DNA of 64,000 nucleotides from Nitrospinota bacterium (lineage in GTDB: Bacteria; UBA8248): assembly GCA_036231405.1 (NCBI GenBank), contig JAZAHK010000028.1, positions 575 to 64,574 on the forward strand, given 5' to 3'. Positions 3,439 through 45,241 of the stretch are shown piece after piece. The translations under genes and the position numbers were made by a program. The notes beneath the pieces were generated by a model. The model worked only from the letters and a program-made list of their open reading frames with translations, was not told the DNA's origin and searched no databases. Positions within the stretch are counted from its first letter, which is position 1. The number at the start of each line of letters is the position of its first letter.

Positions 3439-4608
3439 TTGGTTAGAACAAATCTTAGAAAATACAGTTACAAGAAGGTTTTTCCTAGATTTTGTTTTGG
3501 CATACTCGATTTTATAGGATTTTTATTTTTTTCAAGAAAAAGAGACATCCCCAAAAATATTTCTAATATATTAGTTTTTCGTCCTGACCATTTAGGCGAT
3601 GTAGTTTTTTCCATCCCATCATTAGAAATTTTAAAAGAGAAATTTCCTGATGCGCAAATTGATATTTTAATAGGGCCTTGGTCTTCATCTCTGATAAAAA
3701 ACACTACTCAATTTGATAGTAATAATTTTCATATTTTAGAGTACGCATGTCCCTGGCTCAATCGCCCGAAGATTGTGAAATTTGGTTTTTTATCCATTTT
3801 TCAGATAGTTAAATTACTCAAGGATAGAATGCTTGAAATAGGGAGAACTTACGATATTGCGATAGATTTAAGAGGTGATTTTCAACTGATCATGGCCGCA
3901 CGTATCGCTCGAATTCCATTTTTGGCGGGACGAGGATCGACAGGTTTAGGTTTCCTACTTGATACAGATGTCCGAATTTTTGAAGACAGACACCTTGTAG
4001 AAAGTAATCTATTTCTTCTAGAAAAATCTGGTCTCGGTGAATTTCCGTTTAAGGAACCAGAGATAAAAATTTCTTCAGAAAATAAAGACAGAGGGAGTTC
4101 TATACTTCGCGAAAATGGAGCTAATTTTTTAAAGCCTCTAATTGGGATTCACCCCGGCGCAGGCCTTGGAGATAAAAGATGGCCATCTGAAAAAATGGCT
4201 GCACTGGTGGAGAGGTTTTTGCTCAAGAAAAGATATCAAGTTGTTTTATTGGGTGGACCTGACGACAAACAACTTATCCAAAAACTTTTAGAATTTCTTC
4301 CTCCACTTTTGAAAGAAGAGGTGATTGATTTGTCTGGCAAAGTTAATTCCCTTAGAACCTTTATGGGAGTTATTAAAAATATCAATCTATACATTGGGAA
4401 TGATTCTGGTCCTACACACATTGCTTCTGCTATAAATGTACCTGTAGTTTGTATTTTTCAGGGAACGAATGATCCTTCTATATGTCGTCCGCTTGGGAAT
4501 TCCGCATTTACAGTTTCTGCAGAGCCTAAAAATCGAAAAAGGATTCAGAAGGAGTATCCCCCTCCTTCTTTTGAAGAGGTTTGTAAGGTGGTTGATCGAT
4601 GCGTATAG
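3439..4608 (+). CDS. glycosyltransferase family 9 (ADP-heptose:LPS heptosyltransferase-like)
   Basis: Motifs LVFRPDHLGDVVFSIPSL, GIHPGAGLGDKRWP and YIGNDSGPTHIASAINVPVVCIF are typical of RfaF/RfaC-type GT9. The TTG start is taken from the ORF track, so the N-terminus is uncertain. Confidence 0.75.
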   Translation: MVRTNLRKYSYKKVFPRFCFGILDFIGFLFFSRKRDIPKNISNILVFRPDHLGDVVFSIPSLEILKEKFPDAQIDILIGPWSSSLIKNTTQFDSNNFHILEYACPWLNRPKIVKFGFLSIFQIVKLLKDRMLEIGRTYDIAIDLRGDFQLIMAARIARIPFLAGRGSTGLGFLLDTDVRIFEDRHLVESNLFLLEKSGLGEFPFKEPEIKISSENKDRGSSILRENGANFLKPLIGIHPGAGLGDKRWPSEKMAALVERFLLKKRYQVVLLGGPDDKQLIQKLLEFLPPLLKEEVIDLSGKVNSLRTFMGVIKNINLYIGNDSGPTHIASAINVPVVCIFQGTNDPSICRPLGNSAFTVSAEPKNRKRIQKEYPPPSFEEVCKVVDRCV

Positions 4609-31880: not shown

Positions 31881-32303
31881 ATGCACTCTTTGAGACCGTG
31901 TTTGACTGTGTTCGCCATTGTGTTCGCACTGTGCATCGGTGCAACACAGAGTGCGGAAGGGTATGACATAAACATTAAAAAAGGTTTGGAGAGACTAAAG
32001 ACAACAAAAAATTGTCCTAAATGTGATCTGCGTCAGGCAGACCTAGAAGATGCAGACCTGCGTGGTGCAAACCTGACTGGTGCGGACCTGAGTGGTACAG
32101 ACCTGAGTTATACAAACCTGAAAGATGCAAACCTGCGTGGTGCAAACCTGTCTGGTGTGAAAGTTACTAATACAAATTGGACTGGTGCAAAGGGAGTCGA
32201 GGAAATAGGGAGAGAGCAGGAGAGACTGGCAAGAGAAGCAAGAGAAACAAAAGAGAGACTGGCAAGAGAAGAAAAAGAGAGAAAAGAGAATATTGCAGAA
32301 TGA
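31881..32303 (+). CDS. secreted pentapeptide-repeat protein with K/E/R-rich repeated C-terminal tail
   Basis: Signal peptide [25 protein letters not shown], then tandem A(D/N)LxG pentapeptides ([40 protein letters not shown]), then a duplicated ERLAREA/ERLAREE tail. Confidence 0.75.
32020..32165. repeat. tandem 15-bp coding repeats (pentapeptide-repeat codons, gcagacctg/gcaaacctg units)
   Basis: Visible direct repetition of (g)c(a/g)(a/g)acctg(a/c)(g/c)t ggt units. This explains the many low-complexity antisense ORFs at 32043..32520. Confidence 0.8.
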
Positions 32304-32464
32304 ATAAAGCGAGTGAGCGGAAAATAGAAATTCTCGAAATTCTTTCGGAAGGGTGCCGAAAACATCCCGCATATCGTGCGCGTCGACCTGCTACAGGACG
32401 GTGCGAAGAGTGCGTTGTAGTATGGAATGCTCGATTTGAGTTGAAGGAAATGTCTGACAGATAG
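32300..32464 (+). CDS. small Cys-containing protein (54 aa), ATGA-coupled to the pentapeptide-repeat gene. Hypothetical.
   Basis: The ATG at 32300 overlaps the TGA stop (32301..32303) of the upstream gene. Translation is [56 protein letters not shown] content is about 60%. The ORF track shows a longer alternate-frame extension. Confidence 0.4.
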
Positions 32465-32555
32465 TGATTCATCATCTGTGTTGGTGTTGAGTAATGTGCC
32501 CAGGAACTATTGATTTGCATAGTCCCCGTAGATTCAAACTAAGGATACTAATGCT

Positions 32556-34739
32556 ATGACGCCATCAGAAAAAATTATTGATAAAGCCATTAAACAAGGA
32601 CGAAATACCCTCACTGAAGTTGAGGGGAAAGCACTTTTATCTAAATTTGGTATCACTGTTCCTCGTTCTGGAGTTATCAGGCTTGGTGAGGATATAGAAT
32701 CATCCTTACAGGAATTAAAACCGCCACTAGCAGTAAAAGTACTTTCTTCTGAAATAATGCATAAGAGTGAAACTGGCGGTGTTAGGTTAAGCCTGATGTC
32801 AGCGACTGAGGTAGCTAAATCAATAGAAGAAATGTCAGTATTGCCAGATATAAAAAATAAGGCGCTCGACGGATTTCTAGTTGAAGAGATGGTGGCAAAT
32901 CCAGGAAAGGAGCTTGTAATTGGAGGCCTCCACGATAAGCAATTTGGCACAATGATAATGGTCGGTCTTGGTGGGATTTTTGTAGAGATACTCAAGGACA
33001 TATCTTTTCGGCTCTGCCCCATTAATCGAGACGACGCACACTCGATGTTAGAAGAATTAAAAGGTAAACCGATCCTAGAAGGTGTTAGAGGCGAAAGCAG
33101 TGTTTCGATTAAATCGATCGTTGATTTGTTACTAAAGTTCGGTGGGAAAGATGGACTTTTAATGCAAAACAGTGGTGCTATTTCCGAATTCGATCTCAAT
33201 CCCGTAATTGTCAGTTCTGATAAAGCAGTAGCTGTCGATGCAACTGCTGTATTGTTTAGAGAAAACAAATTACAAACCGATATACCTAGAGATAAAAACA
33301 CTAGTGCTGTTGATATATTTGGTCCTCTGTTCAAACCTAAAACAATAGCAGTTGTCGGCGCCTCGACAACCACAATTATCATAGCCAATACTTTTATACG
33401 GCGCATGAAAGCTTTCGGATATCCCGGAGAAATTTATCCAATCCACCCAAAGGCATCGGAAGTAGAAGGTCTGCCAGCTTATAAAAGTTTGGGAGAAACA
33501 CCAAAAAAAATTGATTATGCCTATATTGCAACCCGAGCTGATCGTATCCCAGAGTTAATTGGTGCTGCAAAAGGGAATGTGAAATTTGCTCAAGTCATCT
33601 CAAGCGGTTTTCGAGAAGTACATGAAGGGATTGCCCTTGAAGCCAACCTTGTTACCAAAGCCAAAGAAGCTGGGTGTCGGCTAATTGGACCAAATTGTCT
33701 GGGAATATATTCGCCACGCGGTGGTGTGACTTTTCCTGTAGATGCACCAAAAGAACTAGGATCCGTTGGTGTTGTAACACAGAGCGGTGGACTAGGCACT
33801 GATATTATAAAACGTGGCCAATCACGCGGGCTGCGTTTCAGTGGTTTTGTTACCGTCGGTAATTGCGCGGACATAGGTCCTGCAGACCTACTTGAGTTTT
33901 ATCTTGAAGACAAAGTAACTTCTGTAATTGGGTTTTATCTTGAAGATATAGGTGATGGTCGACGCTTTTTTGAATTGCTGCACAATAGCAAAACCGCAAA
34001 ACCGGTCATCATTATGAAAGGTGGCAGGTCAGAACTGGGCCGTATAGCTGCCGCATCTCACACCGGTGCACTCGCTGATAATATGGCAGCTTGGAGAGCG
34101 CTTGCACTGCAAACACCTTGTGCTTTAGTCGAAACTGTAGATCAATTTATAAATTCATTACTCGCTTTGCAGCAACTTAAACCTAGGCCTAAAAGACCAA
34201 CGAAAAGAGTTGTTTTATTTGGTAATGGAGGCGGCACTAGTGTATTAGCTACAGATTTTTTCGCCGAACAAGATCTCGAAGTAATGCCATTTGAGCTAGA
34301 CACAAAAGAAAAACTAGAGGCTTTACAATTGCCACCGGGCACTAGTGTTGCAAATCCAATCGACACACCTGTCAGAACTTTGCAACTGGAAGAGGGCCGT
34401 GTCGCGGATCGGATATTAAACATTGTTTATCAAAGTGCTAAACCAGATGCTGTGGTAATGCACTTGAATCTTACCGCATTTATAGGACGAGGAGATATAG
34501 ATCCCATAGAAAATTTATTTCAAGTTGCAGTCAATATTAATACAAAATTCCCCAATCAAACACACTTTGTCCTTGCTCTTCGTTCGGATGGATCGGCTGA
34601 AGTGGATGATCGCAAACGTCTCTATTGGGATCGTGCTCTGGAAAATGGAATGCCAGTATTTGATGAATTGCCAGATGCCGCTTACGCACTTTCTACTCTA
34701 AGCCACATTGAACAGAATTTGTTTAAAGCTGGAAATTAA
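32556..34739 (+). CDS. NDP-forming acyl-CoA synthetase family protein, fused ATP-grasp (N-terminal) and CoA-binding (C-terminal) domains
   Basis: N-terminal LTEVEGKALLSKFGITVP ATP-grasp region. C-terminal KPKTIAVVGAS...GYPGEIYPIHPK CoA-binding region and NCLGIYSP ligase-CoA region. Confidence 0.75.
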   Translation: MTPSEKIIDKAIKQGRNTLTEVEGKALLSKFGITVPRSGVIRLGEDIESSLQELKPPLAVKVLSSEIMHKSETGGVRLSLMSATEVAKSIEEMSVLPDIKNKALDGFLVEEMVANPGKELVIGGLHDKQFGTMIMVGLGGIFVEILKDISFRLCPINRDDAHSMLEELKGKPILEGVRGESSVSIKSIVDLLLKFGGKDGLLMQNSGAISEFDLNPVIVSSDKAVAVDATAVLFRENKLQTDIPRDKNTSAVDIFGPLFKPKTIAVVGASTTTIIIANTFIRRMKAFGYPGEIYPIHPKASEVEGLPAYKSLGETPKKIDYAYIATRADRIPELIGAAKGNVKFAQVISSGFREVHEGIALEANLVTKAKEAGCRLIGPNCLGIYSPRGGVTFPVDAPKELGSVGVVTQSGGLGTDIIKRGQSRGLRFSGFVTVGNCADIGPADLLEFYLEDKVTSVIGFYLEDIGDGRRFFELLHNSKTAKPVIIMKGGRSELGRIAAASHTGALADNMAAWRALALQTPCALVETVDQFINSLLALQQLKPRPKRPTKRVVLFGNGGGTSVLATDFFAEQDLEVMPFELDTKEKLEALQLPPGTSVANPIDTPVRTLQLEEGRVADRILNIVYQSAKPDAVVMHLNLTAFIGRGDIDPIENLFQVAVNINTKFPNQTHFVLALRSDGSAEVDDRKRLYWDRALENGMPVFDELPDAAYALSTLSHIEQNLFKAGN

Positions 34740-34936: not shown

Positions 34937-35905
34937 ATGACGAATAACCGGGGTCAGCAAATAATCGCGCTCGAAGAACATAACAGCGACCAAGGGCTCT
35001 TGGAACTTCCCGCCGAACAGGGTGGTCGAAGCCATAGTGGTCCGACCCTAGATCGCCTCATGGATATTGGTGAGCAGCGGATAAAAAAAATGGACGAATC
35101 CGGAATTGATATCCAGGTGTTGTCTCAGGCCTCGCCTTCGACACAGCGGCTCAACCCGACAGATGCTGCTGAGATTACCCGAGGCGTCAACGACCGTCTA
35201 TTTGAGAGCATGAAGGCGAACCCTGATCGGTTTGAGGCCTTCGCGGCGCTGCCGACGATCGTACCCGATGCCGCCGCCGACGAGATTGATCGATGTGTCA
35301 GTGAGTTAGGTTTCAAAGGCGCGATGATCCATGGCCTGACCAACGGCGCCTTTATTGATGAGCAGCGGTTTTGGCCGATCTTTGAGCGCGCGGAAAAACT
35401 CAACGTACCGATCTATCTGCACCCCGCGGCCCCTCATCCTGACGTGGTGAAGGCCTACTATTCAGACTATGCGGAGAAATTTCCCACAATCCTTGGGCCA
35501 GCTTGGGGCTATACCGTCGAGACGGCAACCCAGGGGTTGCGACTCATCCTTTCCGGGCTTTTCGACAAGGTGCCGGACGTAAAAATAATCATCGGCCATC
35601 TGGGCGAAAGTCTGCCTTTCATGGTGTGGCGTATCGATCAATCGATCAACCGCCCCGGCAGTGCGGGCGTCGCCTTCCGAGATATCTTTTGCAAAAATTT
35701 TTATACCACCACCAGCGGATTTTTCTCTGACCCCGCTATGCTGTGCTGCCTCCAAGAGATGGGCGTGGAGCATGTACTGTTTTCTGTCGACTGGCCCTTT
35801 GTCGAGAACAAGCCGGGGACGGACTGGATGGAATCTATTTCGCTTTCGACGTCGGATAAGGAACTCATCCTGAACGGCAATGCGAAGCGTATCCTGAACC
35901 TCTGA
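34937..35905 (+). CDS. amidohydrolase_2 (ACMSD/LigJ/TIM-barrel metal-dependent hydrolase) family protein. GC-rich, probably horizontally acquired.
   Basis: 322-aa ORF with GC about 58%, versus about 37% in flanking core genes. Motifs IALEEH...IHGL...IIIGHLGE...FSVDWP resemble PF04909. Confidence 0.65.
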   Translation: MTNNRGQQIIALEEHNSDQGLLELPAEQGGRSHSGPTLDRLMDIGEQRIKKMDESGIDIQVLSQASPSTQRLNPTDAAEITRGVNDRLFESMKANPDRFEAFAALPTIVPDAAADEIDRCVSELGFKGAMIHGLTNGAFIDEQRFWPIFERAEKLNVPIYLHPAAPHPDVVKAYYSDYAEKFPTILGPAWGYTVETATQGLRLILSGLFDKVPDVKIIIGHLGESLPFMVWRIDQSINRPGSAGVAFRDIFCKNFYTTTSGFFSDPAMLCCLQEMGVEHVLFSVDWPFVENKPGTDWMESISLSTSDKELILNGNAKRILNL

Positions 35906-36065
35906 GGGTGATGATAAGCTTGTTTTATCCTGGGCATTTCGGGCCAAATGAATACGTAGCTGATGATTGCCAGTAACCCAACCGATGACATTATTAAGAC
36001 GGCAATATCGGCTCGATTCCGATGCACATGAAATTAGTACCGTGCTGCCCGTGTATCTGTATGAG

Positions 36066-36114
36066 ATACAAAGGGTGTTGAATAAAGTGCACAAGAACTA
36101 CTGATTTGCTATAA
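36066..36114. repeat. 49-bp imperfect direct repeat (copy 1) containing internal inverted repeat AACTACT...AGTAGTT
   Basis: atacaaagggtgttgaataaagtgcacaagaactactgatttgctataa matches 36691..36739 at 40 of 49 positions. Confidence 0.7.
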
Positions 36115-36266
36115 AAATGCTGAATTGTAAAGTAGTTGTAAACTAAAAAATAGTTCAATATGATCAATGACTTACAGGATATTTTTTATTGAACAGGAGT
36201 GATTCTTTTCCCGTAAGTTTTCGATATCAAGTGATTTTCATTTACAAAGCAAAGGAAATTTAAAGT

Positions 36267-36659
36267 ATGCTAACTTCAATAGATCACATCGTTCTAATAG
36301 CAAATGATATGGACAAAACAATTTCCTTTTACTGCGACGTTTTAGGGATGACTTTAGAAGACTTCACTCCCTCTGGTGGAGGGGAAGCAAGAAAGTCTTT
36401 GAAGTTTGGTGACCAGAAAATAAATCTACACCACGCAAAGCTACCCTATAAGCCACACGCACATAACCCTGTCTCTGGGGCAGTTGATATTTGTTTCTTG
36501 AGTTTTACAACAATCAAAGAGTGGGAGAATATTTTCTCCAAAAATAATGTTGTGATTGAAGGTGGACCCATTCAAAAGACAGGAGCAACTGGTCCCATTA
36601 TATCTCTTTATGTGAGAGACCCAGATCAGAATTTGATAGAGATTTCTAACAAAATATAA
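36267..36659 (+). CDS. VOC/glyoxalase-bleomycin resistance-dioxygenase family protein
   Basis: 130 aa. IDHIVLIANDMDKTISFYCDVLGM ... ISLYVRDPDQNLIEI pattern of the glyoxalase I fold. Low GC (about 35%). Confidence 0.75.
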   Translation: MLTSIDHIVLIANDMDKTISFYCDVLGMTLEDFTPSGGGEARKSLKFGDQKINLHHAKLPYKPHAHNPVSGAVDICFLSFTTIKEWENIFSKNNVVIEGGPIQKTGATGPIISLYVRDPDQNLIEISNKI

Positions 36660-36690
36660 ATCAGCTTGCCAATGAATGTGCTCGTAAGCA

Positions 36691-36739
36691 ATACAAAAGG
36701 TGTTCAATAATGTACTCGAGAACTACTAATTTATTATAA
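36691..36739. repeat. 49-bp imperfect direct repeat (copy 2)
   Basis: atacaaaaggtgttcaataatgtactcgagaactactaatttattataa. See copy 1. Confidence 0.7.
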
Positions 36740-36853
36740 TATTGATGAGTAGAAAATAAAAATGAGTTCATATGTTTCAATTATTTACAGAAATGACATC
36801 ATTGAGTGGTAGTGAACCTTAAAGCTAATAACACTGGACAAAAGGAGAAAATA

Positions 36854-37594
36854 ATGGATCGTGGCATCTGGGCAGTTTGGTACGACCTACCGAAAGAGGG
36901 CGAGGATGAATACCTTTCCTGGCTACATGAAGAGTACATCCCTCAAACTCTCAAACGTCCTGGATTCCTTTGGGCTGCACATTACAGATCCATTAGGAGC
37001 GAATACCATAATTCAAGCCCTGTACAGATGGCCAAAAGGTTCATGGATGAACCCGAACTGGGACGGGGAGGAGAATACTTCCTATTATTCGGGGCAGACA
37101 GCGCCCATTCATTTCTCGACCCTGCTCCCGAAGACCTACTGAACAGTTATGACGATCGTTCTCGCGAAATGATTGCCCGTCGACAAGGAGACCGAAGCGC
37201 CTATTTCACTGAGGTAGGTCGTGTAGATGGTCCAGAGATCGCGCGGCGCGGCCCTGGTCTTACTCCTGCTCCCATGGTCCAAATGGGCGCCTATCGGTCC
37301 GACGACGAAAATTACAACATCGATGTGGAAAGCTGGTACGTCCACCATCGCCTCGCCTCTTTGCCAGAGATGGAAGGATGCGTCGGGGCACGCAAACTCA
37401 TTTCCTTGGGAGGCTGGGCCCGACATGCTATCCTCTACGAATTCATTTCACCCGAAGCGCGGGAACACTACTATCAAATCCAAGAAGCTCCCGGTGGCGA
37501 CGCAAACCATCCTACCGGTGGTGTTGTCCGAAAACTCATCCATTCACCGGACTCACCGTCTTTAGGCGTGCGCATATGGCCAGAAGTGAAGTAG
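36854..37594 (+). CDS. hypothetical protein, GC-rich, apparent internal tandem duplication of an approximately 110-aa domain
   Basis: Start chosen at the ATG at 36854 behind an AGGAG RBS. The track ORF begins earlier, at 36806. The two halves share SW(L/Y)HEE/HH..P..pGf/eGc..A. GC reaches about 60% in the 3' half. Confidence 0.5.
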   Translation: MDRGIWAVWYDLPKEGEDEYLSWLHEEYIPQTLKRPGFLWAAHYRSIRSEYHNSSPVQMAKRFMDEPELGRGGEYFLLFGADSAHSFLDPAPEDLLNSYDDRSREMIARRQGDRSAYFTEVGRVDGPEIARRGPGLTPAPMVQMGAYRSDDENYNIDVESWYVHHRLASLPEMEGCVGARKLISLGGWARHAILYEFISPEAREHYYQIQEAPGGDANHPTGGVVRKLIHSPDSPSLGVRIWPEVK

Positions 37595-38439: not shown

Positions 38440-38442
38440 AAG

Positions 38443-38600
38443 ATGCAGATTTGTAAATTCGCCATAGATCTTACTTTGACAATATTTGTTGCAAGTTGTT
38501 CTTATCCAGCGAGAATACTAGGCAAACTTTGACATCATACTTCCAAAGGATTTCATAACCCAAAAGGTAGCCTAAAGAAAAATTTCTGGTTCAGGTGTGT
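38443..38600 (+). pseudogene. 5' fragment of an MBL-fold lipoprotein gene (decayed paralog of the 41697..42752 gene), interrupted by TGA where the intact copy has TGG
   Basis: About 75% nucleotide identity over about 155 bp to 41697..41855. Compare atgcagatttgtaaattc...gcaagttgttct...cacttccaaaggatttc with atgcagaattgtaaattc...gcaagttgctct...cacttccaaaggatttc. The frame reads MQICKFAIDLTLTIFVASCSYPARILGKL*. Confidence 0.7.
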
Positions 38601-38765
38601 TCCTTAGTTTTTAAGCAGACCTTTAAAATTAATTTTTTTCAATGCCTAGAAAGTGCCGTCTAATCATGTAACGCCAAAGACAGATGCATGAGTGTGGAAC
38701 GCCATAGTTGTTATTTGAAATTGTTTCTAGTAGTCTACCGGCACACAATCAAATGAGGAGAAAAA

Positions 38766-41346: not shown

Positions 41347-41696
41347 AGGTTATGTTGAAAGTTAAAATAGAAAGCGTGAGGCAGAGTTTAAATTTATTGA
41401 AAGAAAAATTTGAAAATGAAAACGATTGATTGCCCTCTTGTGATTTTCGCTTCAAACATGCAAATCCTGATTGTTGTACTGCTTGTAATCAACCTCATTA
41501 TAGAAACTGCTTGAAAGCTTTTCGAGACAAAATGGAAGAGAGTCCAGAAGCACGTTTTATAGCTTTGTGTCCATCGTGTATAGATTCTATTTCGTGGCGA
41601 ATAGATGCTCAAGAGGTCGTATCTTCAAGTTGGAATGAGTGGGAGTTAGAAACATAGGAGTAATGAGAGAAGTGACGGAGAGGGCTTTAATCTAAA

Positions 41697-42752
41697 ATGC
41701 AGAATTGTAAATTCTTTATATTTTTTTTGTTGTCAATATTTATAGCAAGTTGCTCTGATGCAGCGAAAATTCCTGATAAGCCTTGGCATCACACTTCCAA
41801 AGGATTTCGCAATCCCGAAGGTAGTCCTAAAAAAAAATCCTGGATTAATCGTTTTCCTTGGATTGTGAGTAGACCCTTTAAATTGATGTTTTTTGGCATT
41901 CCAAAACTACCTCCTGAACATGTAATGAAAAAGAAAGAAGTAGTGCATGGATTAAAGGCAACTGCAGGAAAAGATACAGTAACTTGGTTGGGCCATATGA
42001 CGGCCTTACTTCGTATTGACGGCAAGTCTATTTTAACTGATCCCTGGCTTACCAGTCATGCTTCTCCGGTTCGTCCGCTCGGTCCAAAACGTTATGTCAA
42101 ACCAGCTTTGACAACTTCAGAACTCCCTCCAATAAATTTTATTGTTATTTCCCACAGTCATTTTGATCATCTTGATCTTCCCACAATCGAGGCGATTCCG
42201 AACCGAGAAAAAATCACTGCAATCGTGCCTCTCGGAATTGGCAAATATTTCAAAGAATATGGATATAAAAAAATTATTGAATTGGATTGGGAGAAATCTG
42301 TTACTGAAGACGGAATAAGTTTCACTGCGCTTCCAGTTATACACTGGTCTAAAAGATCGGTTTTTTCTACAAATGATACACTTTGGACCGGTTGGGCGAT
42401 AAAGGGTGCTGGTGGGACTCGTGTTTTTTTTGCTGGAGATGCAGAATACAGTTCCGTTTACCAAGATATTGCTAAAAGACATGGTGGTTTTGATCTTTCT
42501 TTGCTTTCTATAGGTGCTTTTTTACCAAGGGTCGTGATGCACGGTTCACATTGTGTCCCGGAAGATTGTATTAAAATAGGAAATGATATGGGAGCAAAAA
42601 ATCATCTTGGAATGCACTGGGGTACTGCTCCACTTGGAGATGATACCCCGTTAGAGGCTCTTCGACGTTTTCGAAATGGGGCTAAGACATTAGGGATACC
42701 TGCAGGACGGGTATGGATTATGAAAATCGGTGAGACGCGTATTATTGAATGA
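41697..42752 (+). CDS. MBL-fold metallo-hydrolase lipoprotein
   Basis: Lipobox LSIFIASC. VISHSHFDHLD metallo-beta-lactamase motif. Confidence 0.8.
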   Translation: MQNCKFFIFFLLSIFIASCSDAAKIPDKPWHHTSKGFRNPEGSPKKKSWINRFPWIVSRPFKLMFFGIPKLPPEHVMKKKEVVHGLKATAGKDTVTWLGHMTALLRIDGKSILTDPWLTSHASPVRPLGPKRYVKPALTTSELPPINFIVISHSHFDHLDLPTIEAIPNREKITAIVPLGIGKYFKEYGYKKIIELDWEKSVTEDGISFTALPVIHWSKRSVFSTNDTLWTGWAIKGAGGTRVFFAGDAEYSSVYQDIAKRHGGFDLSLLSIGAFLPRVVMHGSHCVPEDCIKIGNDMGAKNHLGMHWGTAPLGDDTPLEALRRFRNGAKTLGIPAGRVWIMKIGETRIIE

Positions 42753-42806: not shown

Positions 42807-43673
42807 ATGTCCGAATATGATTTGAAAGGAAGAACGATAATTGTGACTGGTGCAGGTCGTGGTCTTGGTCGAGCTATGACCGAGGCACTTACAGAAGCAG
42901 GTGCGAATGTAGTTGCAGCAGCTCATATAACAGAAGATTTTCCAGAACTTCAAGAAGCATGTTCGAGTCATCCTGGTGACCTATATTGTATAATGGGAGA
43001 TATTCGAAAATCAGACGATTGCGACAGAATTATTTCCGCGACTTTAGAGGTATTTGGTGATGTCCATGGCCTTGTTAATAATGCAGGACTAACTTTTACC
43101 TATATTACTCCGGATGCGTACAGACGAGATGCTTTTAAACAGAGAAAAGAATATCCAAAATTTTATGAAGCAAGTGATGAGGTTATACAAAACGTGATCG
43201 ATACTAATTTCGTAGGTGCAGATAAGCTATGCCGACGAGTAGTTCCTCTAATGATTGATCAGGGTTGGGGTCGTATCGTCAACGTCACAACCATGTATCG
43301 AACAATGACACGTCAGGGAGCGTCGCCATACGGTCCTTCCAAGGCCGCACTTGAATGTGCAACTGAAATTTGGGCAAAAGATTTAGCAGAGACCGGAGTA
43401 ACTGTAAATGTTTTAAATCCTGGTTCTGGTGCCGCTACTCCAGGAATGGCAGAGGAAATGAAGGAATATAGTAAGAGTTTAGAGAATCCTATCCTTATCG
43501 AGGCTGAATTAATGAAAGCTCCGATTGTCTGGCTTATTTCGGACGCAACCAATGAAATTACAGGAATGCGTTATGATGCAAAGCCTTGGGACCCAAATAA
43601 ATCTGCAGCCGAAGAAGCAGAACGAATTGGGGCTAAGGCAGGCGTTCTCCTCTACTCCATGCCAGACTACTAA
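42807..43673 (+). CDS. SDR-family oxidoreductase
   Basis: TGAGRGLGRAM glycine-rich NAD(P) motif. Start set at the ATG at 42807 behind a TAGGAGG RBS. The track ORF starts at 42789. Confidence 0.85.
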   Translation: MSEYDLKGRTIIVTGAGRGLGRAMTEALTEAGANVVAAAHITEDFPELQEACSSHPGDLYCIMGDIRKSDDCDRIISATLEVFGDVHGLVNNAGLTFTYITPDAYRRDAFKQRKEYPKFYEASDEVIQNVIDTNFVGADKLCRRVVPLMIDQGWGRIVNVTTMYRTMTRQGASPYGPSKAALECATEIWAKDLAETGVTVNVLNPGSGAATPGMAEEMKEYSKSLENPILIEAELMKAPIVWLISDATNEITGMRYDAKPWDPNKSAAEEAERIGAKAGVLLYSMPDY

Positions 43674-43684
43674 GTGGGTTATCT
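43466..43684. repeat. 219-bp direct repeat, copy 1 (native 3' end of the SDR gene)
   Basis: About 93% identical to 44982..45200. Runs from atatagtaagagtttagagaatcctatc through ctaagtgggttatct. Confidence 0.9.
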
Positions 43685-43783: not shown

Positions 43784-44959
43784 ATGTTTACAGCAACTAA
43801 AGATCGATCACTGCTTACTACCACTACGGGTGCCTTGCCACGTCCTACCTGGTATACTGAAAACCTTCGGGGGCAGCCATTATCCATAGGATTTTCACAG
43901 AAAGGTTATCGCGAACAACATTTTGATTGTCTCTCTTGTCATATTAGTGCGCAGAAGAGAGCAGGGATTGATATCTTTGTTGATGGTGATACAAGGCTCG
44001 ATGATGACGTCGCTGGTCGGAGCTGGGTGAGTTATGCCTATGAGCGGATAAAAGGTTTTGGTGTACCGGATATTTCTGTACAGCCCTATGCTGCAATGGC
44101 TGACAGTGGTCCTGGTGACTTCATATGGGAAGTTATAGAGACACGACTAACTCCTCATGTAGAGGATAAGATTGGTGAGACTTCGCTCCAACTCGATCGG
44201 GCATGGAAGGCGATTGCACCCATGACCAGTCGGCCCGTTAAGATTGGCTCAATCTCCGCCCAGGTTATTGCCCATATGTGCGTTAACGATCACTACACTA
44301 GCCGCTTTGACCTGCTAATGGCTTTATCGGAGGCATTGAATCATGAGTATCACGCTCTCGCCGATGCTGGAGCGCCAATTGTTCAAATAGAAGAACCCGC
44401 AATTCATCAATCGATGTACGCTCTCAACCCTGAAATTACTGCTGAACAGTATGTAGAAGCTTTTAACGTGGAAGTTGCTGGTTTGCGCGAAAAATGTGAA
44501 GTCTGGTGCCATGCTTGTTGGGGTAGCCCTGGTGCACAAAAAATGTTTCCTTCGGGAGCTTCCTACAAGGAGGCTCTACCATATTTTGATAAGCTCGACA
44601 TCGATGTCTTGACAGTCGAAGGTGCTACAAACGGCGGTATTGATGTCCCTCTATACGGTTCTATGATCTCCAAGGACAAAAAGATAGCGGTTGGAGTTAT
44701 CAGTCACCGCACAATGCAGATAGAAAGACCTGAAGAGGTTGCCAGTTTAATTCGTCTATGTCTCCAACATATTGAACCTGAGCGCTTGGTCCTCTCGAGT
44801 GATTGTGGATTTGGTCGTCAGTCAATGAGCCGTATGCATGCCTTCTATAAAATGGTGTCCCTGGTCCGGGGTGCAAATATTGTGCGTCGTGAGCTCGGAC
44901 TTGAGGAAGTTGCCGTTCCGGCAGCAGATCCCAACTTTTCTATGGTACCCATTCGTTAG
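43784..44959 (+). CDS. cobalamin-independent methionine synthase (MetE) C-terminal-domain-like / UroD-fold methyltransferase family protein
   Basis: Zn-ligand-like motifs VWCHACWG and LSSDCGFG as in Meth_synt_2. GC about 50%. Start set at the ATG at 43784. The track ORF starts at 43703. Confidence 0.65.
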   Translation: MFTATKDRSLLTTTTGALPRPTWYTENLRGQPLSIGFSQKGYREQHFDCLSCHISAQKRAGIDIFVDGDTRLDDDVAGRSWVSYAYERIKGFGVPDISVQPYAAMADSGPGDFIWEVIETRLTPHVEDKIGETSLQLDRAWKAIAPMTSRPVKIGSISAQVIAHMCVNDHYTSRFDLLMALSEALNHEYHALADAGAPIVQIEEPAIHQSMYALNPEITAEQYVEAFNVEVAGLREKCEVWCHACWGSPGAQKMFPSGASYKEALPYFDKLDIDVLTVEGATNGGIDVPLYGSMISKDKKIAVGVISHRTMQIERPEEVASLIRLCLQHIEPERLVLSSDCGFGRQSMSRMHAFYKMVSLVRGANIVRRELGLEEVAVPAADPNFSMVPIR

Positions 44960-44981
44960 TAATTGGTGTAAGAAAAAAATA

Positions 44982-45189
44982 ATATAGTAAGAGTTTAGAG
45001 AATCCTATCTTTCCCGAGCCAGAACTAATGAAGGCCCCAATTGTCTGGCTGATTTCCGATGCAACCAATGAAATTACAGGAATGCGTTATGATGCAAAGC
45101 CTTGGGACCCAAATAAACCTGCAGCCGAAGAAGCAGAACGAATTGGGGCTAAGGCAGGCGTTCTGCTCTACTCCATGCCAGACTACTAA
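44982..45189 (+). pseudogene. orphan 3' fragment of SDR gene (duplicate copy; last ~68 codons, ...KSLENPIFPEPELMKAPIVWLISDATNEITGMRYDAKPWDPNKPAAEEAERIGAKAGVLLYSMPDY*)
   Basis: Direct-repeat copy 2 (44982..45200) of the SDR 3' end. It has no 5' part or start codon. Confidence 0.85.
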
Positions 45190-45241
45190 GTGGGTTATCT
45201 GAAACATAGCTAACTACAAAATATGGTTGAATGATATGAAT

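Follow-up and report, generated by a model that had tools for sequence, protein, structure and literature searches.

A previously undescribed repeat family may well mark the joints at which recombination has shuffled an accessory island, in which a small detoxification-type gene of the VOC/glyoxalase family moves as a unit together with its repeat modules and the core of the repeat resembles a promoter; as a joint account, we give this explanation about an even chance of being correct. The whole stretch of DNA analysed here, 64,000 nt in length, is referred to as the window. Comparison of contigs indicates that the VOC gene with one module on each side, about 460 nt in all, has been gained, lost and relocated whole, and the alignments place the elements at joints between gene blocks of a hypervariable island in a low-GC marine Nitrospinota genome. 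The window copies of the element are designated c0, c1 and c2, and the loci with which they were compared (L001, L002 and so on) lie on contigs from short metagenome assemblies.

Table 1. Repeat elements, the VOC unit and neighbouring genes, in window coordinates.
Feature	Position	Strand	Remarks
Small CxxC ORF, 54 aa	32300..32464	+	No Pfam family; travels with the variable array
c0, truncated element	32483..32542	+	Last ~10 nt of module, 46-nt core, short tail
c0 core	32483-32530	+	Upstream of ACS-like gene
Left flank gene, Amidohydro_2, 54% GC	34937..35905	+	Adjoins DUF4286-like gene in L012
c1+VOC+c2 block, ~0.9 kb	35915..36815	+	Without counterpart in syntenic L012
c1 terminal module, ~36 nt	36047..36086	+	nhmmer E 7e-9; pattern searches
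c1, upstream repeat element	36059..36207	+	Module, core, AT-rich tail
c1 core	36074-36120	+	TGCTATAAA at 36108-36116
VOC travelling unit, ~460 nt	36250..36709	+	Leader, ORF, spacer, downstream module
VOC/glyoxalase-family gene, 130 aa, 38% GC	36267..36659	+	Pfam PF00903, E 1.4e-15
c2 terminal module	36673..36711	+	nhmmer E 1.2e-8
c2, downstream repeat element	36684..36820	+	Core 36699-36746, TATAAT 36736-36741, tail
Right flank gene, DUF4286-like, 53% GC	36854..37594	+	Homologues in GC-rich Nitrospinaceae, in another context

The repeats around the VOC gene were first noticed as a pair of 49-mers (36066-36114 and 36691-36739) identical at 40 of 49 positions. This match is real: among 200 shuffled versions of both intergenic regions, the best 49-mer match averaged 26.4 identities (s.d. 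1.15) and never exceeded 30. The similarity is also longer than the 49 bp originally reported. Ungapped alignment of c1 with c2 gives 75% identity over 73 nt, and gapped alignment of 36059-36207 with 36684-36820 gives 67% over approximately 150 nt (E values of 4e-13 and 8e-11 in two comparisons). The initial annotation placed the first copy 110 bp upstream of the VOC gene, a distance that has to be corrected, as this copy ends 152 nt before the ATG; the second copy, placed 30 bp downstream, begins 31 nt past the stop codon and so lies very nearly where it was described.

Alignment divides the element into three parts: a terminal module of ~36 nt (family consensus GTGAATGTGTCCGTAAGAAATACAAAGGGTGTTGART), a conserved core of 46 nt (consensus GGTGTTsAaTAAwGTGCnCnrGAACTAyTGATTTGCTATAAt) and an AT-rich tail that terminates in a TTGAGTGGGAGTGA-like motif. 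Searched with an nhmmer profile of the core, the window yields exactly three copies (E 1e-12, 2e-12 for c0 and 8e-10), all of them inside one 4.3-kb segment of the 64 kb; the next match has an E value of 0.87. Such a low number does not support the REP-like option suggested earlier, for which a high-copy palindromic element would be required; REP/BIME sequences were ruled out on the lack of a hairpin and the two to three window copies, and a general promoter type of this genome was ruled out since nhmmer finds no further copy in the window. Outside the window, a pattern scan of JGI metagenomes recovered one further locus on two contigs (L005/L006); there the element is co-oriented with an unrelated GDSL-lipase-type gene that lies ~140 nt downstream. 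When 185,579 species-representative genomes, a collection without the source MAG, were scanned with two patterns, no match was returned, and viral contigs returned none beyond one chance match within a coding region. The family consists of previously undescribed non-coding intergenic repeats of ~150 nt, known from few loci.

The copies differ considerably in how closely they are related. The copy c1 matches L005 at 37 of 40 positions (92% over 49 nt, between contigs) and c2 at 32 of 40; because c1 is nearer to L005 than to its own partner, the bracketing copies are not a fresh local duplication, and c1 and c2 are instead old, diverged members of the family. The truncated c0 is 86% identical to c1 over 36 nt and 85% identical to L005 over 61 nt, and L018 carries its orthologous copy at 4424-4469. 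Across four to five independent contexts the core is conserved well above its flanks. The distance from the element's end to the next gene is 14 nt for c0 (ATG of the ACS-like gene at 32556) and 33 nt for c2 (DUF4286-like gene).

Small reading frames overlap the elements. In all copies an ATG or GTG lies 7-9 nt past an SD-like GGTG and opens a mini-ORF of 5-21 codons; at c0 the upstream ORF (32494-32559; 21 codons, MCPGTIDLHSPRRFKLRILML) begins at TAATG inside the core and ends in a TGA that shares bases with the ACS-like start codon (ATGA). A relic coding sequence was rejected as the origin of the repeats: although every copy has the stop of one frame in common, the frames stay open for just 13-45 codons. 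For the 45-aa ORF across c1, a search of 1.8 billion representative proteins returned no homologue.

Several lines of analysis bear on whether the repeats act through a folded structure. Inverted-repeat cores had been noted in both copies, but only copy 1 has the full palindrome AACTACT...AGTAGTT, copy 2 having just AGTAG, and neither core is significant on folding (-3.1 kcal/mol, z -0.19 for copy 1; -1.1 kcal/mol, z +0.24 for copy 2). Folding of both DNA strands of c0, c1, c2 and L005 gave z scores from +0.4 to +1.2, and none did better than its shuffles. Elements that are short, conserved and intergenic and that display short inverted repeats to the eye would suit a REP-like palindrome, or a cis-regulatory RNA such as a riboswitch or leader common to the downstream genes. 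Against this stand the folds, which are no better than those of shuffled sequences, the low copy number, an Rfam search without a match at the gathering score or even at E 5, and RNAalifold, which predicts 0 pairs on the four copies; we consider a structured element extremely improbable.

The same data speak to the integron gene cassette, in which the repeats would be attC sites recombined by IntI at GTTRRRY. One short ORF between repeats within an array of co-oriented genes has the appearance of a cassette, and a single GTTGAAT (36077) and a single ACCCAAC (35976) are present. However, no strand of any copy folds beyond shuffles, and the interval between these heptamers (35970-36090) folds into nothing beyond local stems (z -1.2 to -1.4), and its ends do not pair with each other. 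The heptamer pointed out in the initial annotation exists in copy 1 but is not shared by copy 2: at the homologous place c1 has GTTGAAT, c2 GTTCAAT and L005 GTTAAAT, and c0 has no GTTRRRY. The repeat is not palindromic, and a Pfam scan of all ORFs of at least 100 aa identified no integrase, recombinase or transposase in the 64-kb window. An integron or attC origin, as hinted at earlier, is therefore not borne out, and we rate it highly improbable.

Recombinases and transposases were likewise missing from every comparison contig that was fetched. ARAGORN detected no tRNA gene in the window or in nine loci, which rules out a tRNA-derived att site, and inspection of the aligned copies together with folding revealed no dyad symmetry in module or core, as would be expected of a Xer/dif-type site of ~28 nt, in which a spacer of 6-8 nt separates two inverted 11-nt arms. 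By eye, motifs of the sigma-54, ECF, CRP/FNR, LexA and NtcA types do not fit the core in spacing or symmetry.

The mobility of the VOC gene emerges from its relatives. The VOC protein and the neighbouring ACS-like protein are both 100% identical to proteins of a Nitrospinota MAG, encoded on a 139-kb contig, and in ocean metagenomes the VOC gene together with its repeat ends occurs at many different genomic addresses. The sole available empty site is found in L012, a low-GC relative ~82% identical over the shared genes, where an interval of 77 nt lies between Amidohydro_2 and the DUF4286-like gene downstream; what is absent is the entire c1-VOC-c2 block rather than one element, and no repeat copy is left. 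Because both c1 and c2 are absent from L012, they were not created by the insertion. The L012 arrangement could reflect a deletion rather than an ancestral empty site.

Relocation is seen in L018, which is 96.6% identical to the window over 32289-33159 (CxxC ORF, c0 and the start of the ACS-like gene) and carries a VOC gene, 85% identical to that of the window, 1.1 kb upstream of this segment and beside a restriction-modification pair. This pair, directly upstream of the VOC unit (L018 142-2248), comprises a C-5 cytosine DNA methyltransferase gene and a convergent gene of 367 aa, probably a restriction enzyme, with just a weak HSDR_N_2 match.

The limits of homology around the VOC gene are nearly invariant: 36251-36709 in L017, 36252-36708 in L018 and 36250-36709 in L019-L023, with homology running from 36253 to the contig end in L001 and L002. 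The end points are thus shared across about eight contexts, in which the unit's neighbours are DUF6198, MFS, SlyX/MORN, restriction-modification, EamA, MORN and CxxC genes. Direct module copies flank the gene in these contexts, L001 and L002 included. The upstream copy abuts the start codon (...GGAAATACAAAGT followed directly by ATG), and a full downstream copy lies 12-24 nt past the stop; in the window, the unit opens with a 17-nt leader that includes the RBS. In L018 the two direct modules measure 37 nt, are 84% identical and are spaced 433 nt apart. The earlier suggestion of the VOC gene as a delimited, movable unit with repeats at its boundaries is upheld by the empty site in L012, the relocation in L018 and these shared end points. 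A further boundary of this kind occurs in L020/L021, where homology begins at most 2 nt from the outer end of the module upstream of the CxxC ORF.

In addition to direct copies, the module occurs in inverted arrangement. A 302-nt unit in L018 (3119-3420) has 36-nt inverted module arms that are 86% complementary, with a fold z of -4.9; in this arrangement the module would act like a MITE end. No clear target-site duplication was found at this unit. The MITE-like option raised in the initial annotation thus has partial support, from L018; in the window, no inverted module exists anywhere and c0, c1 and c2 have no inverted partner.

Two other comparison loci merit description. In L019 (540-590), compared with L022, a MORN-repeat gene breaks off 15 codons into its signal-peptide start. 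Next comes an EamA transporter gene, and the sequence ahead of it, CCGTACTGTAGGAAATA, is similar to the outer half of the module; the site is a further joint between blocks at module-like sequence. L003 (2640-2700; also L004, 890-930) contains a fragment like the 3' end of a tRNA or tmRNA (…GGTTCAATCCCAGTACGCTCCACCA), located ~250 nt downstream of VOC and followed by a terminator-like hairpin, with no gene called by ARAGORN; the fragment may be what is left of an integrative island's att site.

The window contains two other direct repeats. The first (38440-38684 versus 41694-41938; 248 nt, 72% identical) brackets an NMT1-type ABC transporter operon absent from L012, and its copy at 38440-38684 is a dead 5' fragment of a metallo-beta-lactamase-fold gene with three in-frame stops. 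The second (43427-43684 versus 44943-45200; 259 nt, 88% identical) brackets a MetE-like gene, likewise absent from L012, and its copy at 44943-45200 is a start-less 3' fragment (~69 codons) of an adh_short gene. Being the only other repeats in 64 kb, these pairs have the layout of recombination scars, flanking genes missing from L012 with one copy in each being a dead gene fragment, and they lend some weight to the idea that c1 and c2 are such scars. Donor and recipient versions of a flank would then stand side by side after additive integration, which could proceed by Campbell-type or homology-facilitated illegitimate recombination, and the copies themselves would serve no function. Neither c1 nor c2, however, is present at the L012 site, and c1 has a nearer copy at an unrelated locus than c2. 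Conservation of the core above its flanks, and the direct modules that flank VOC in all contexts and not in this window alone, also argue against mere scars, and we regard this explanation as unlikely.

The core itself ends in a TGnTATAAT-like box, which reads TGCTATAAA in c1, TGCTATAAT in L005 and TATAAT in c2; c0 has CATAGT only. All copies are co-oriented with the downstream gene and lie 33-150 nt upstream of its start. No -35 hexamer was found, and a sigma-70 consensus scan of the window did not list the cores. On the position and wording of the box, the core is plausibly a portable promoter for the gene downstream. It is conceivable that the repeats are nothing else, that is, reused promoters or leaders forming paralogous regulatory regions that are maintained for expression or shared regulation, with the position of VOC set by ordinary island recombination unrelated to them. 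This explanation draws on the placement of every copy in the same orientation upstream of unrelated genes, on a core whose conservation exceeds that of its flanks and whose end is a -10-like box, and on documented precedent for promoter reuse (PMC3575422). VOC is preceded by a degenerate core in L020/L021 as well, and the linkage between element and VOC is therefore old. On the other hand, block boundaries coincide with the module and not with the core in several independent comparisons, the module occurs inverted too, neither a -35 element nor a dyad-symmetric operator accompanies the core, and none of the ~50 remaining upstream regions in the window contains the motif. Promoter reuse by itself retains a minor, though real, chance of being the answer.

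The genomic setting is of mixed composition. The accessory island lies downstream of mutL, guaB and guaA, and the window background is 36-40% GC. With 38% GC and a GC3 of 0.36, VOC looks native against this background; the compositional outliers are its neighbours, Amidohydro_2 (GC3 0.64) and the DUF4286-like gene (GC3 0.51). The contrast first reported, of a low-GC gene amid GC-rich genes, therefore holds locally, but the low-GC segment is simply of host composition. Close homologues of the DUF4286-like gene reside in Nitrospinaceae loci of 50-58% GC with a different neighbourhood, and the L012 orthologues of both flank genes have 45% GC; these values suggest that the flank genes were imported from a GC-rich relative and then ameliorated. 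The NDP-forming acyl-CoA synthetase (ACS-like) gene at 32556-34739 has no close Nitrospinota homologue and, judging by its best match of 72% in marine Alphaproteobacteria MAGs, was probably acquired horizontally. As its closest homologues are so distant, no orthologous regions are available for footprinting of c0.

The protein encoded by the CxxC ORF has two CxxC-like pairs and is conserved at 32300-32464 of the window, L018 4241-4405 and L021 895-1059. The ORF is repeatedly found near the VOC unit in varying order, adjoining VOC in L020/L021 and lying 1.1 kb away in L018. Just upstream in the window (32177-32300), the C-terminus of a pentapeptide-repeat protein is charged and imperfectly repeated, and its DNA carries repeated GAGAGACTGGCAAGAGAAG units.

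We propose exchange of DNA by recombination at module copies as the most likely mechanism behind these arrangements. Looping-out between two direct modules would release a circle of ~433 nt comprising the gene and one module, for which any other module could serve as the point of re-entry. The enzyme involved might be the host homologous recombination machinery, or a recombinase or transposase acting in trans. The family would also form MITE-like units bounded by inverted modules, and its conserved core would supply a promoter to whichever gene lands downstream. The cassette idea of the initial annotation is partly supported, right in spirit and wrong in mechanism.

A more specific version takes the ~36-nt module to be the attachment site of a non-integron, site-specific system of single-gene cassettes. 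The 433-nt circle would integrate at a resident module, with crossover at the junction of ...ATACAAAG and the following G, and the incoming gene would take its RBS and start context from the resulting upstream hybrid site; the CxxC ORF and the EamA gene would be shuffled likewise by a recombinase encoded elsewhere. Taken as a single joint reading, this version is distinctly unlikely.

If the modules are exchange points, they would allow single accessory genes to move compactly between sites and lineages. Such exchange would take place in uncultured marine nitrite oxidisers and their neighbours without integron machinery, and each arriving gene might receive a ready-made promoter. Module and core together would then serve as a sequence tag for flexible-gene arrays in fragmented metagenomes. 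Should the repeats prove to be merely reused promoters or scars, the locus would still be a clean example of a low-GC streamlined genome building an island from blocks of mixed origin.

The layout of the elements fits neither integrons nor typical MITEs. Like integron gene cassettes, the VOC locus offers a single ORF of promoterless size in a unit of ~460 nt delimited by repeats, co-oriented genes in a variable array and the same gene in many contexts, and an integron-like circle of gene plus one site would explain the 433-nt repeat spacing. Unlike cassettes, it shows neither a palindrome nor a hairpin of the attC type, GTTRRRY and RYYYAAC do not form a conserved pair, and no integrase was seen in the window; the module is found 5' of VOC, overlapping the RBS and gene start, besides 3'; and the elements are ~150 nt of unstructured DNA, in contrast to attC.

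Bacterial MITEs that carry promoters include the Correia elements of Neisseria (cited in PMC3575422). The present elements resemble them in being short (150-300 nt), non-coding and intergenic, in the inverted terminal modules of the 302-nt L018 unit and in an outward-facing -10-like box that could drive neighbouring genes. They differ in that the window copies have one terminal module, that neither target-site duplication nor transposase was found, and that the handful of known copies sit close together instead of being dispersed. The criterion for putative mobile promoters (Matus-Garcia, Nijveen and van Passel, 2012; PMC3575422) is an identity of 80% or more across 50 nt or more in front of non-homologous genes. 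Here too, homologous upstream regions precede non-homologous genes within and between genomes, with no Rfam match, and the values are borderline (82% over 49 nt, or 75% over 73, within the genome; 85% over 61 between contigs). Unlike putative mobile promoters, the elements described here coincide with the boundaries of genes that were gained, lost or moved.

CIME-type elements are non-autonomous integrative units flanked by att sites. The VOC cargo is comparable in lying between direct repeats of ~27-37 nt, as between attL and attR, and in having no recombinase inside the unit, so that any mobilisation would occur in trans. It differs in that the cargo is one 393-nt gene and that the site has no tRNA or canonical attB, and we know of no cognate integrase for the flanking repeats. 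Marine bacteria also possess additive flexible genomic islands, and the region shares with these a hot spot downstream of housekeeping genes (mutL-guaB-guaA) and mixed-GC gene blocks that are added side by side and leave partial duplicates. In contrast to additive islands, there is no tRNA or integrase anchor in the window, and the joints carry a dedicated repeat family.
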